Below, piece by piece: positions 2,976 through 5,476 of a DNA stretch of 5,477 bases. Positions within the stretch are counted from its first letter, which is position 1; each line of letters opens with the position of its first letter. This DNA is from a virus. The notes below the pieces were generated by a model. The model did not search any database and was not told where the DNA came from. It was given only the letters and a program-made list of their open reading frames with translations. The DNA is taken from positions 1-5,477 of IMG/VR virus record IMGVR_UViG_3300045988_000249; one strand, 5' to 3'. A program made the translations under genes and the position numbers.

Positions 2976-3980
2976 ATGCCATGTACAAATCCAAATGTTT
3001 TTCAGATAAACACGACCAGACCGAAAATGTGGGGAAGTTTAAAAAACCTCAAACGCCAAGATCTAGAAGACACCATCATGGACGGCGTCAAAAAAGGAAA
3101 CCTCGCGCTATTACCCTGTGGACAGTGTGAGTATTGCAGAAAGCAAACAGCCGAACAATGGGCCACAAGAATTGAGCTTGAAGCAAAAAACTGGGAAGAC
3201 GTGATCTTTGTGACAATGACCTATGACGAGGAACACATACCTTATGGAGAAATCCTGAAAGGCTGCCAAAGTATCCAGTCTCAGACGGTAAGTAAAAGAG
3301 ACGTACAACTTTTTATAAAGCGTCTGAGAAAGGCATACAAGAAGCCGATAAAGTACTTCATAGCGGGCGAATACGGAGACAGAACAAAACGACCGCATTA
3401 TCACGGCATTTTTTTCGGATTAAAACCGGAGGATGGACAGTGGTACAAAAACCAGAAAGGCAACTCATACTTCAAAAGCCAGTGGTTAACAAACCTCTGG
3501 GGAAAAGGCTTTGTAGACTTCTCACCAGCGGAACCGGGTTCATACGCGTATGTGGCGCAATACGTCAACAAAAAGGCAATCGGCGCAGAACAGAGCGCAA
3601 AGTACTGGATGCAAGGCAGAGAGCCAGAATTTAGGATCATGTCCAAAGGCATCGGGGAAAAGTATCTTAAAGAGCACATGAACGAAATCCTAAAGACGGA
3701 CAGCATAACATGCGCCGGAGGGCGGCAGAAAAGACCGCCAAGGTACTTTGATAAGCTACTCGATAAGGATACCAGCCAAGACGCTGAGAGCTACTTCAAG
3801 GCCCATTCTGACGAGCTGAGAGAGGTACGAGCCAAGCGAAGGAGAAACGCGCTGCTAAGCCTCGCAAACATTGAGCAAAACACGAGCGTACCTTATTCAA
3901 CGTACCTCGAAATCCAGAAGGAGAAGAACAAACAGAAACAGAAGTGGCGTGAGCCAATAAAGGACCAATCCGGAATCTAG
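2976..3980 (+). CDS. VP4: Replication initiation protein VP4 (HUH rolling-circle endonuclease, phiX gpA family)
   Basis: 334-aa ORF. The N-terminus is MPCTNP...PCGQCEYCR, a Cys cluster typical of gokushovirus VP4. Motif 1 is FVTMTYDEE. The HUH motif is PHYHGIFFG (HYH = nt 3396-3404). The double-tyrosine motif is YVAQYVNKK (nt 3549-3575), compared with YVAKYVNK as I recall it from phiX174 gpA. Confidence 0.94.
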   Translation: MPCTNPNVFQINTTRPKMWGSLKNLKRQDLEDTIMDGVKKGNLALLPCGQCEYCRKQTAEQWATRIELEAKNWEDVIFVTMTYDEEHIPYGEILKGCQSIQSQTVSKRDVQLFIKRLRKAYKKPIKYFIAGEYGDRTKRPHYHGIFFGLKPEDGQWYKNQKGNSYFKSQWLTNLWGKGFVDFSPAEPGSYAYVAQYVNKKAIGAEQSAKYWMQGREPEFRIMSKGIGEKYLKEHMNEILKTDSITCAGGRQKRPPRYFDKLLDKDTSQDAESYFKAHSDELREVRAKRRRNALLSLANIEQNTSVPYSTYLEIQKEKNKQKQKWREPIKDQSGI

Positions 3981-4034: not shown

Positions 4035-4095
4035 CCTAAATGTAAATGCAAGATTTATCTAATCTAAACTTTTTTACAAAAAACCTTGACTTCTT

Positions 4096-4119
4096 CAATA
4101 AAATTATCAATAAAATTAT
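4096..4119. repeat. Perfect tandem duplication of the 12-mer CAATAAAATTAT
   Basis: 4096-4107 equals 4108-4119. It lies in the AT-rich intergenic region just downstream of a TTGACT hexamer (4086-4091). Nearby are TAAATG x2 (4037-4048) and T6-AC-A6 (4070-4083). Confidence 0.9.
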
Positions 4120-4135
4120 GTACACCTTTACAGAA

Positions 4136-4164
4136 TTGACAGCCGGGAATTTGTCTGATAAAAT
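4136..4164 (+). promoter_or_regulatory. Near-consensus sigma70-type promoter with an extended -10
   Basis: TTGACA (4136-4141), a 17-nt spacer ending in TGA (TG at 4156-4157), then TAAAAT (4159-4164). The upstream region is AT-rich. It lies about 30 nt upstream of ATG4194 and is followed by a strong SD. Confidence 0.65.
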
Positions 4165-4193
4165 AAAAACAAAGAATGAAAGGAGGTAACACA

Positions 4194-4310
4194 ATGGCAC
4201 ATCGTAGCGGCGCAGGCCGTGGCGACCAGCGGCGTTTTACGCAGACCGCAAAGCGAACGAAAAACATCAACGTGCGTCCAAAGGTCAGCCGAGGCGGCGT
4301 TCGACTGTAA
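4194..4310 (+). CDS. Small arginine/lysine-rich DNA-binding (packaging) protein, phiX J / gokushovirus ORF8-like. It is not in the supplied ORF track.
   Basis: ATG4194 is preceded by GAAAGGAGGT (4178-4187) at 6-nt spacing. It encodes 38 aa, MAHRSGAGRGDQRRFTQTAKRTKNINVRPKVSRGGVRL*, with about 10 Arg/Lys, 1 His and 1 acidic residue. The C-terminal RGGxRL/F tail resembles ORF8-type proteins as I recall them. Confidence 0.65.
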   Translation: MAHRSGAGRGDQRRFTQTAKRTKNINVRPKVSRGGVRL

Positions 4311-4344
4311 TGCAGCACACAGAACAAAGAAAGGAGGTGAACCG

Positions 4345-4455
4345 ATGGACTTTAAGGAGACCATGGGCATCCTGATGAAAATCCTGGACATGGTAGACAA
4401 GATTTACCATGCAGTCGTGAAGAACGCAGAAGAAGAAGACGAAAGAGAGGAATAA
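4345..4455 (+). CDS. 36-aa hypothetical peptide: amphipathic helix plus acidic tail. It is the likely real gene inside the 78-aa track ORF.
   Basis: ATG4345 is preceded by GAAAGGAGGT (4329-4338) at 6-nt spacing, the same 10-mer and spacing as for ATG4194. The product is MDFKETMGILMKILDMVDKIYHAVVKNAEEEDEREE*. Its stop TAA (4453-4455) lies 2 nt before the GTG of the peptidase gene. Confidence 0.5.
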   Translation: MDFKETMGILMKILDMVDKIYHAVVKNAEEEDEREE

Positions 4456-4457
4456 AG

Positions 4458-4856
4458 GTGCTGCATGAATACAGCCTATTTAATCAGGGCACCCACCGTG
4501 TAAGCCCACATTTCAAAATCAGTGAATTTGCACAAAAAGATGGAAGGTGTGACAAAATACTCATCGACTCAGAACTAGTAGAAGTGCTGGAAGATGTAAG
4601 GACACACTTTAACGCACCTGTGATAATCAACAGTGGCTACAGAACACCGGAATACAACAAAAAAATCGGCGGTACAAAAAACTCGCAGCACACAAAAGGC
4701 ACGGCGGCTGACATTCGAGTAAAAGGAGTCCCGGCTAGTAAGGTGCAGCAGTACCTAAAAAATAAGTACCAGGACAAATACGGAATCGGAAGCTACCGAA
4801 AATTTACGCATATAGACACACGAAAAAAAAGGGCAAGGTGGAAAAATGAAACTTAA
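4458..4856 (+). CDS. Zinc metallopeptidase, Peptidase_M15 (M15_3-like) family; putative peptidoglycan hydrolase / endolysin
   Basis: 132-aa ORF with a GTG start and GAGAGGA upstream. It carries the motifs SGYRTPEYNKKIGG and SQHTKGTAADI (H78 = nt 4689-4691, D85 = nt 4710-4712). It also has GIGSY..FTHIDTR (H118 = nt 4809-4811), which completes the H-x6-D...H zinc triad of the VanY/M15 fold. There is no N-terminal signal peptide or TM segment. Confidence 0.88.
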   Translation: MLHEYSLFNQGTHRVSPHFKISEFAQKDGRCDKILIDSELVEVLEDVRTHFNAPVIINSGYRTPEYNKKIGGTKNSQHTKGTAADIRVKGVPASKVQQYLKNKYQDKYGIGSYRKFTHIDTRKKRARWKNET

Positions 4857-5103
4857 ATTCTACAGTTTTCACGACAGTGTAACAAATGGCTACAGCAATC
4901 CATTCCTCCAGCAGAACCGAGCAGTGGCAATCCGCACAGCAAAGTGGAAAGCAGACGAGTCCAAAACACAGGAAATCGAAGACATCTCTCTGGTGGAGAT
5001 GGGAGACTTCGACACCGAAACCGGCGAGATGTACGGAGCAAGTCCGAAGCATCTGTGCAAGCTGACGGACCTGAAAAAGGAGTTTAACAATGAAAGATCC
5101 TAA
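4846..5103 (+). CDS. VP5: Gokushovirus ORF5/VP5-like non-structural protein
   Basis: 85 aa. ATG4846 follows AAGGTGG (4835-4841) and the ORF overlaps the peptidase 3' end by 11 nt. The pattern FYSFHD.......NPFLQQN.AVAIRT.........ISLVEMGDFDTETGE fits the F.V.D...PF....A.R.F....L..G.FD..TG pattern I recall for chlamydiamicrovirus/gokushovirus ORF5. Confidence 0.65.
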   Translation: MKLKFYSFHDSVTNGYSNPFLQQNRAVAIRTAKWKADESKTQEIEDISLVEMGDFDTETGEMYGASPKHLCKLTDLKKEFNNERS

Positions 5104-5476
5104 CGTAAGGTTTTTCGGAATGCCGACCGAGAGGATGCCAAGTAAGGCAGGCTCAGAGATGGCACCAACGTGGAAAGCGGTGAAGCGAGCAAACGGAACA
5201 ACCGAGTACATCGAACAGCCGCCCGAAAACGTATACGAGAAAATCCAACGGGCCGGTGAGGGCTACGACCTCGCAAGCGCGATTGCGCGGCTAGAAGCAG
5301 GAGACGTGAGTATCAAAGCAAAGAGCATGGTATACACCGAGGGCACGCCACTGGAAAACATGCCCAAAGACGTGGTCACGATTCACGAGAAAGCACAGGC
5401 GGCAGCGGAAACGCTGGAACAGCTGAAGCAGGAAGAAAAAAAGAAAGAGGTGAGCGAAAATAAACCGGAACGATGA
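5090..5476 (+). CDS. Putative internal scaffolding protein (VP3-like)
   Basis: 128 aa. ATG5090 follows AAGGAG (5077-5082) at 7-nt spacing and the ORF overlaps the VP5-like ORF by 14 nt. Its position immediately upstream of VP1 across the circular junction, its size and its charged helical C-terminus are consistent with VP3. Motif similarity to classical VP3 is weak. The stop lies in an ATGA overlap (equivalent to nt 51-54). Confidence 0.45.
   Translation: MKDPNVRFFGMPTERMPSKAGSEMAPTWKAVKRANGTTEYIEQPPENVYEKIQRAGEGYDLASAIARLEAGDVSIKAKSMVYTEGTPLENMPKDVVTIHEKAQAAAETLEQLKQEEKKKEVSENKPER

Follow-up and report, generated by a model that had tools for sequence, protein, structure and literature searches.

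The window analyzed here, which is the whole 5,477-nucleotide (nt) stretch of IMG/VR virus record IMGVR_UViG_3300045988_000249, is a complete gokushovirus genome with every gene on the + strand. It encodes a 132-amino acid zinc peptidase of the M15 family (4458–4856) directly downstream of a 36-amino acid open reading frame (ORF; 4345–4455). We judge it moderately probable that the peptidase is an endolysin drawn, without the accompanying holin and spanin, from the lysis cassette of a tailed phage or prophage, that it is the likely lysis effector of this virus, and that the small ORF is a separate gene of the viral backbone. An earlier reading of the window from its sequence alone (the sequence-only reading) had put forward the small peptide as a candidate partner of the peptidase, and this pairing did not survive comparison with related genomes.

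Identity and Structure of the M15 Peptidase

The peptidase matched Pfam family PF08291 (Peptidase_M15_3) at profile positions 2–108 of 108 (E = 7e-30; 103.7 bits, cut-off 23.2) and PHROG 894, which carries the annotation ‘endolysin’ (1e-46). The ligand and catalytic residues H78 (codon at 4689–4691), D85 (4710–4712), H118 (4809–4811), and D120 (4815–4817) are invariant in an alignment of 45 homologues and also in nine divergent microvirus M15 peptidases. In an alignment with the zinc DD-peptidase 1LBU, H78 and D85 match the H-x6-D of that enzyme. The AlphaFold2 model of the peptidase (predicted local distance difference test score [pLDDT] 92) is folded from residue 2. Its best Foldseek matches in the PDB were the LAS-fold proteins 1LBU, VanY, Ply500, ChiX, and LdcB, with probabilities of 0.87–1.0, modest E-values (~2e-3), and TM-scores of ~0.5. 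The gene spans 4458–4856 and begins with GTG, 2 nt past the stop codon of the small ORF; relatives have ATG at the same position, which supports this start. The sequence-only reading had placed both ORFs at these positions and had proposed an M15 zinc peptidase with a triad of H78, D85, and H118. The full-profile match to Peptidase_M15_3, the aligned and invariant zinc ligands (with D120 in addition), and the LAS-fold model confirm the ORF as an intact M15 zinc peptidase of the LAS/Hedgehog-DD-peptidase fold, with predicted activity.

Origin and Distribution of the Peptidase

The window peptidase is ~50–57% identical to the endolysins of K1-5/SP6-like podophages and of phage phiR1-37. In K1-5 and in Klebsiella phage Koku, the endolysin gene is followed by those of an Rz-like spanin and an annotated holin. 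Among cellular or prophage proteins, the closest to the window peptidase are one from an Oscillibacter metagenome-assembled genome (MAG; P0109, 61% identical) and endolysins of ~200 amino acids with C-terminal extensions. Such an extension, ~70 amino acids in length and resembling a cell wall-binding module, is present in five relatives that are 53–56% identical to the window peptidase (P0120, P0110, P0112, P0115, and P0118), at least one of which is found on a microvirus-sized contig (P0120, 197 amino acids; 5,592-nt contig).

An M15 gene occurs in every genome with a VP1 at least 62% identical to that of the window (~80 genomes). Within this clade it occupies two insertion sites and belongs to lineages just 40–45% identical to each other. 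The two sites and the divergent lineages point to repeated acquisition or replacement, which implies selection for function.

Enzymes of this type have been found in microviruses before. Roux et al. 2012 (PMC3394797) reported M15_3 genes in 11 human-associated Microviridae, with unknown ORFs beside 5 of the 11, made a case for their acquisition from (pro)phage lysis cassettes by horizontal transfer, and proposed an endolysin role. According to a later report, M15 peptidases are common in marine Occultatumvirinae. Among isolated microviruses, phiHBP1 of B. fragilis encodes an M15A peptidase (PMC13064476), and Gp7 of Ebor degrades peptidoglycan in vitro, as seen in zymograms (PMC11980548). The GenBank record KX513864 annotates a ‘peptidase M15’. 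The M15 enzyme in the window is an already known kind in a known place, in keeping with the suspicion in the sequence-only reading that it was not new.

Absence of Signal, Holin, and Spanin Sequences

The N-terminus of the peptidase (MLHEYSLFNQGTHRV) is polar and lies within the folded domain, in which residues 2–6 form a strand (pLDDT >95). As the fold of the model begins at residue 2, it leaves no space for a signal or signal-anchor-release (SAR) segment, and neither the sequence nor the AlphaFold2 model has a hydrophobic N-terminal segment of the kind expected for a signal peptide or a SAR endolysin. A start-codon-independent hydropathy scan of all three + frames of the window yielded no credible holin-like transmembrane (TM) ORF, and none was found in 75 related M15-bearing genomes either. 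All relatives that share the gene order of the window likewise lack a credible one. As for a spanin, no ORF of the window was found to have a hydrophobic signal or TM stretch, lipoboxes not having been searched for separately.

The hydropathy scan returned just two short fragments, both of which were rejected as TM ORFs. The first is a 19-amino acid stop-to-stop piece (250–306) that lies inside VP1 and is conserved no further than VP1 itself. The second is a 16-amino acid stretch in the spacer between VP2 and VP4; this leucine-rich stretch (2789–2851) arises from a (CTA)5 repeat and constitutes at most a 16-amino acid GTG ORF without a Shine-Dalgarno site. Hydrophobic ORFs on the minus strand (e.g., 2791–2994 and 4804–5211) were also set aside, as their length is not conserved in genomes L001 or L002. 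Apart from the N-terminus of VP2, the + strand encodes no markedly hydrophobic stretch. In these respects, the sequence-only reading, which had noted a peptidase without a signal or SAR segment, no holin-like ORF on the + strand, and VP2 as the sole source of a markedly hydrophobic stretch, was borne out. We found no paper that explains the route by which microviral M15 enzymes reach the cell wall.

Export from the cytoplasm would be unnecessary if the peptidase acted at entry, carried in the virion to make a local opening in the wall through which DNA is delivered. Trace amounts of the Ebor hydrolase Gp7 occur in virions (PMC11980548), which is consistent with such a role. The window M15 peptidase is a free globular enzyme of 132 amino acids, however, with no structural domain and no fusion to a capsid or pilot protein, and its closest relatives are endolysins in lysis cassettes. 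Related genomes that lack M15 carry a short TM ORF, which is a better fit to lysis than to entry. We consider action at entry very unlikely.

A Conserved Helical Protein of Microviruses

The small ORF extends from ATG 4345 to TAA 4453–4455 and encodes the peptide MDFKETMGILMKILDMVDKIYHAVVKNAEEEDEREE. It is preceded, 4 nt 5’ of the ATG, by a Shine-Dalgarno site (GGAGGTGA; 4333–4340, + strand), the context of which is repeated in relatives, including those with a CTG start (see below). A tblastn search of a phage collection with the small ORF gave 15 weak matches, all in Microviridae and all on the coding strand. With a family hidden Markov model (HMM), the ORF was detected in 104 of the 113 microvirus genomes surveyed (GenBank and IMG/VR), as 78 distinct sequences. 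Residues D18, I20, Y21, and H22 are invariant in the family and I13, L14, and A23 nearly so, and this core is far more conserved than VP1. The ratio of nonsynonymous to synonymous polymorphism (pN/pS) is 0.36 in frame, as compared to 1.2 and 1.8 off frame (86 unique core sequences).

We define the D-x-I-Y-H-A family as proteins of 30–45 amino acids that form a single helix, have the core [KR]-I-L-x-x-[LV]-D-x-I-Y-H-A, and are encoded between VP4 and VP5; the window protein, with core KIL..LDKIYHA, satisfies this definition. At least 1,799 clusters of the family occur in a collection of 5.8 billion proteins. The best 120 of these are 34–59 amino acids in length, are nearly all located on contigs of ≤~6 kb (two are on contigs of 10–11 kb), bear the name ‘hypothetical protein [Microviridae sp.]’ where one is given, and have no Pfam domain. 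A profile search of 1.84 billion representatives recovered 65 members, the longest ≤136 amino acids, and among these no multidomain relative that would hint at function. No credible match to a known family was found in Pfam or PHROGs. By these sequence comparisons, the 36-amino acid ORF is a real, conserved, and unannotated gene family confined to microviruses; the sequence-only reading had noted the ORF and its perfect Shine-Dalgarno site.

AlphaFold2 predicts one continuous helix spanning residues 3–35 (pLDDT 89). The helix is amphipathic (hydrophobic moment muH 0.60, mean hydrophobicity 0.28), as had been anticipated. The poly-acidic tail, which the sequence-only reading had also counted among the features of the peptide, is not conserved: its length and composition vary, and it is barely acidic outside of the gene order seen in the window (orders B to D, below). 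In the order of the window (order A), its terminal GAG and GAA codons form a GAGGAG Shine-Dalgarno sequence of the peptidase, and the tail appears to be largely the GAG/GAA-rich ribosome-binding site of the downstream gene. In the window itself, this purine-rich site (GAGAGGA; 4445–4451, + strand) derives from the Glu and Arg codons of the tail, and junctions of the GAGGAGGAGTAAGATG type between the small ORF and the peptidase occur in 25 of 28 genomes of this order.

In ~20 genomes without M15 (L008 4336–4443; L010 1830–1934; L042–L060), the small ORF lacks a start at ATG, GTG, or TTG. Its first codon in these is a conserved CTG after the same GAGGTGA Shine-Dalgarno sequence (LT[FIL][KQ]EI…), and this CTG looks like a conserved non-canonical initiation codon.

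Relationship of the Small ORF to the Peptidase

Four arrangements of genes were observed between VP4 and VP5. Order A (J-small ORF-M15) is that of the window and ~33 other genomes, the M15 peptidases of which are 69–87% identical to that of the window. Order B (M15-J-small ORF) occurs in ~45 genomes with a VP1 72–88% identical to that of the window; here the M15 (~40–45% identical) is of a different lineage at a different site, and J separates the small ORF from it. Order C (M15-small ORF-X75-J) is found in a distant clade. Order D (small ORF-X75-J-short TM ORF) has no M15 and occurs in ~20 genomes, alongside small ORF-J variants. X75 is an ORF of ~75 amino acids (…KTWNVRDQ…KSFAN-IE-E…RR) that in the distant clade is conserved at a position flanked by the small ORF and J (L009 2320–2550; L012 2587–2811; L014 2445–2669; many IMG/VR loci); it is sporadic in the clade of the window (e.g., L069 and L077) and absent from the window.

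The small ORF and M15 thus occur in every combination of presence and absence. Every genome of the window’s clade has a member of the small-ORF family, and more than 20 genomes that lack M15 have one too. The family is absent from the M15-bearing Dulem viruses 189 and 195, which carry a TM ORF after VP2, and was found in none of ~55 tailed-phage contigs with a homologous endolysin. Subtypes of the small ORF (‘MDFKET…’ and ‘MALIKVKD…’) are shuffled relative to the M15 lineages. The small ORF is, on this comparison, native to the lineage backbone and did not arrive with the enzyme.

These observations bear on the possibility that the 36-amino acid peptide is a dedicated, co-translated helper of the peptidase, whether as a chaperone or export aid, an inhibitor, or a membrane-perturbing partner. 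The small ORF immediately precedes the peptidase gene, its stop codon being 1–2 nt from the peptidase start in 25 of 28 order-A genomes, and in order C it adjoins M15 on the other side. Its product is the sole window protein without an assigned role and has the amphipathicity described above, and the invariant Asp and His, spaced i/i+4 on one predicted helix, could in principle bind metal. However, the same core is conserved in the genomes without M15, J intervenes between the two genes in the ~45 close relatives of order B, the Dulem viruses and the tailed-phage contigs have the enzyme without the peptide, and the subtypes do not track the M15 lineages. Tight spacing is also general in these genomes; in order B, the small ORF ends 10–12 nt before VP5. 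A helper function of this kind is unlikely. The part of the partnership proposal that stood is that the small ORF is conserved and, in order A, syntenic with the peptidase; specificity for M15 is the part that fell. Across the genomes compared, the coupling of the small ORF to M15 is real but due to tight packing, not specific pairing. A fusion of the small ORF to the peptidase by frameshifting or read-through was also considered and rejected: relatives differ in whether 1 or 2 nt separate the two genes, so that the reading frames have no constant relation, and there is no slippery site.

Alternation of M15 with a Short TM ORF

Relatives without M15 have an ORF of 30–39 amino acids between J and VP5 that is predicted to pass the membrane once (e.g., L007 1841–1933; L008 4769–4885; L010 2265–2363); such an ORF is also present in L011 (5057–5176), which has M15 as well. 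It usually has a GTG start that overlaps the stop codon of J and a C-terminal …IDIIK-x-W. Among genomes with the small ORF, VP4 and VP5 could both be mapped in 98, and the accessory region of these contains M15 only in 75, the TM ORF only in 19, both in two (L011 and L039), and neither in two. The TM ORF is a candidate lysis protein of the genomes without M15. A holin-endolysin pair would predict co-occurrence, whereas alternation was seen, which suggests that M15 and the TM ORF may be two alternative, self-sufficient lysis modules, one having replaced the other. We did not take the anti-correlation as statistical proof, as the VP1 tree shows few independent contrasts.

A second hydrophobic ORF, of 27 amino acids (MLNTMNFYPWNDIFW-ILMLILLWITC), is conserved in the spacer after VP4 of genomes without M15 (L008 3804–3887; L042 371–454; L055 3669–3752; L058 5206–5289). 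This ORF may be a true gene, or else a DNA element whose conservation only looks like that of a protein.

Self-sufficiency would also be a property of a peptidase that needs no export, that is, a single-gene lysis enzyme that cuts the stem peptides of cytoplasmic precursors (UDP-MurNAc-pentapeptide and lipid I/II) and starves wall synthesis, an outcome that phiX174 E achieves through its block of MraY. The 75 genomes with M15 and no membrane protein, and the alternation of M15 with the TM ORF, are as expected for self-sufficient lysis genes, and the nearest structures include VanY-type enzymes, which act on precursor pentapeptides. In the holin-endolysin model, the endolysin accumulates in the cytoplasm until the holin fires. 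The ~50%-identical tailed-phage homologues reside in holin-spanin cassettes, so that such enzymes are presumably harmless in the cytoplasm until that point, and the few independent contrasts limit the anti-correlation here as well. We therefore regard precursor cleavage as improbable.

The D-x-I-Y-H helix might instead serve as a general late-stage factor beside either M15 or the TM protein, as a surface-active membrane or lysis-timing protein or as an inhibitor of a conserved host target. It is universal in the clade, more conserved in its core than VP1, and predicted to be co-transcribed with late genes; the amphipathicity of its helix is in the range of surface-active helices, and the two genomes with neither M15 nor the TM ORF retain it. 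Against this, the net charge of the helix is negative or neutral, unlike that of known membrane-lytic peptides, no homology to a characterized protein was found in Pfam, PHROGs, or the large protein collections, and a role in assembly or packaging next to J fits the data equally well. A general late-stage role is rather unlikely on this evidence. We are similarly doubtful of the more far-reaching possibility that either the helix is a new, non-transmembrane late factor that permeabilizes the membrane or sets the timing, or M15 is a self-sufficient ‘enzymatic amurin’ acting on cytoplasmic precursors. Were the helix to permeabilize or to time, the signal-less M15, or the TM protein of the sister genomes, could act without a holin.

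Genome Organization and Expression Signals

The window has the features of Gokushovirinae, namely VP1, VP2, VP3, VP4, and VP5 on a single strand of a circular genome of ~4.5–6 kb, and its nearest GenBank records are classified in this subfamily. The closest is KX513864, ‘Human gokushovirus’ (86.5% identity across 91% of the window); KT264784 has 78% identity. The major capsid protein VP1 (80–1729), identified by profile matches, is followed by the DNA pilot protein VP2 (1778–2635), which has an uncharged hydrophobic N-terminus (MSLLSWMPFVMQGLSLLSNVITG). The replication initiator VP4 (2976–3980) and VP5 (Phage_ORF5; 4846–5103) border the accessory region, and the first 11 nt of VP5 lie within the 3’ end of the peptidase gene. 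The internal scaffolding protein VP3 (5090–5476) was assigned by a weak Chlamy_scaf match and by the annotation ‘VP3’ or ‘internal scaffolding’ at the same position in relatives.

The accessory region opens with a J/VP8-like, arginine-rich DNA-binding peptide (MAHRSGAGRG...SRGGVRL; 4194–4310; PHROG 10695; net charge +10), homologues of which in Dulem viruses are annotated ‘DNA binding protein’. The longest ORF for this gene begins at 4176, and the ATG 4194 start is kept in L001 and L002. Its ribosome-binding context is similar to that of the small ORF. An ORF of 47 amino acids just upstream (4046–4189) was rejected as a gene: the spacer is ~100 nt shorter in KX513864 (113 vs. 213 nt), and the ORF overlaps a promoter-like site.

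That site (TTGACA-17-TAAAAT with an extended TG; 4136–4164, + strand) matches the sigma-70-type consensus at 11 of 12 positions and is a putative promoter. It precedes the block of J, small ORF, M15, VP5, VP3, and VP1, and 59 of 106 relatives have a TTGA[CT]A-N16-18-TAnnAT site in front of their first accessory gene. Directly 3’ of VP1 is a terminator-like hairpin and T-run, by pattern match (1750–1769, + strand). Because the promoter-like site stands before J and the hairpin after VP1, the organization suggests that these six genes may form one late transcript, a predicted unit in which VP1 is the last gene. A GGAGG-type Shine-Dalgarno site is located ahead of every gene in the window. Expression signals of these kinds would be a better fit to a Firmicute or proteobacterial host than to one from the Bacteroidota.

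The spacer between VP2 and VP4 (2636–2975) is non-coding and highly structured and may be a regulatory or origin region. It contains at least six iterons of the GTTTTCAACA type (2656–2820), a (CTA)5 run (2823–2837), and a GC-rich palindrome (2891–2912), and a perfect 10-bp hairpin (2938–2947/2961–2970) lies directly before the VP4 start.

A Model for Lysis

We propose that a gokushovirus lineage took the peptidase from a tailed-phage or prophage lysis cassette and would have left the holin and spanin of the donor behind. Expression of the enzyme would be late, on the predicted transcript that also carries J, VP5, VP3, and VP1, and the enzyme would most likely be the lysis effector. Within this group of gokushoviruses, it may functionally replace, or be replaced by, the 30–39-amino acid membrane protein. 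The small ORF would adjoin the peptidase only because this copy of M15 inserted between the small ORF and VP5, with the acidic tail doubling as the ribosome-binding site of the downstream gene. As for how the membrane is crossed, we rank first non-specific late damage, either of host origin or caused by another viral product (the VP2 N-terminus, the small helix, or the cationic J peptide); second would be that no crossing is needed, with M15 acting on cytoplasmic wall precursors. Among the roles of M15, entry is the least supported, and we infer that action on cytoplasmic precursors is less likely than lysis after membrane damage.

Several points weigh against this model. An endolysin without an export route is mechanistically incomplete. 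The small ORF may have a lysis role independent of M15, and its 1–2-nt coupling to the peptidase in order A is real. The anti-correlation of M15 with the TM ORF, with few independent evolutionary contrasts behind it in the VP1 tree, could be lineage history. Finally, with regard to the host, a VP1 scan of 185,579 genomes returned as its sole match a free contig of 5.7 kb that had been placed in the bin of a Bacteroides MAG.

This contig (L118; CAVKUS010000079.1, 5,739 nt, in the MAG ‘Bacteroides sp. CAG:545’) is a complete relative with a VP1 77% identical to that of the window. Its placement is probably a binning artefact rather than evidence of integration, and host identification through prophages was set aside, a free contig in a bin being no evidence of the host.

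Comparison with Known Systems

Gokushoviruses are among the most abundant phages of the human gut. The membrane protein E of phiX174 inhibits MraY and lacks muralytic activity. E and the other ‘amurins’ resemble the present case in that a small single-stranded DNA phage lyses its host without the holin-endolysin-spanin set; the effector in the window is a predicted soluble hydrolase, unlike E, and the TM protein of the relatives without M15 could be an amurin. The J-like peptide (+10, …SRGGVRL) may resemble cationic ‘amurin’ peptides, reportedly derived from Chlamydia phages and able to permeabilize outer membranes; a review of amurin peptides gives no phage source for them.

In mycobacteriophage Ms6, Gp1 is reportedly a chaperone for LysA that allows holin-independent export of the endolysin. 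As in that system, a small ORF is found directly upstream of, and coupled to, an endolysin without a signal. However, it is in position and coupling alone, and in order A, that the small ORF resembles Ms6 Gp1; it is not specific to the endolysin, is much smaller (36 amino acids, one predicted helix), and has no detectable similarity to Gp1. The K1-5/SP6-like podophages (Vectrevirus and Ulipvirus) have an endolysin ~50% identical to the window peptidase, of the same length and with no extra domains. These podophages encode a holin and an Rz-like spanin next to it, whereas the scan of the window found neither.

The closest precedents are the M15_3 genes of human-associated Microviridae (Roux et al. 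2012, PMC3394797; KX513864; KT264784), which are of the same family and subfamily and have the same proposed endolysin role and horizontal origin. Nothing essential is different in the window, and the small ORF is unannotated in those records. The alternation of M15 with the TM ORF and the two insertion sites are not described in the accessible part of Roux et al. 2012. Ebor, with Gp7, and phiHBP1, with its M15A peptidase, are isolated microviruses that have a peptidoglycan hydrolase, but they come from other subfamilies or lineages, and Ebor has in addition a gene for a predicted membrane protein (Gp1; PMC11980548).

The window adds no new enzyme, and the comparison yields three testable statements: an M15 endolysin without a signal is fixed across a large clade whose genomes lack any gene for a membrane protein; sister genomes appear to use a short TM protein in its stead; and a tiny, unannotated, and extremely widespread helix protein is common to both groups. 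Synthetic gokushovirus genomes have been resurrected, and together with isolated M15 microviruses such as phiHBP1 and Ebor they make these questions of lysis accessible to experiment.

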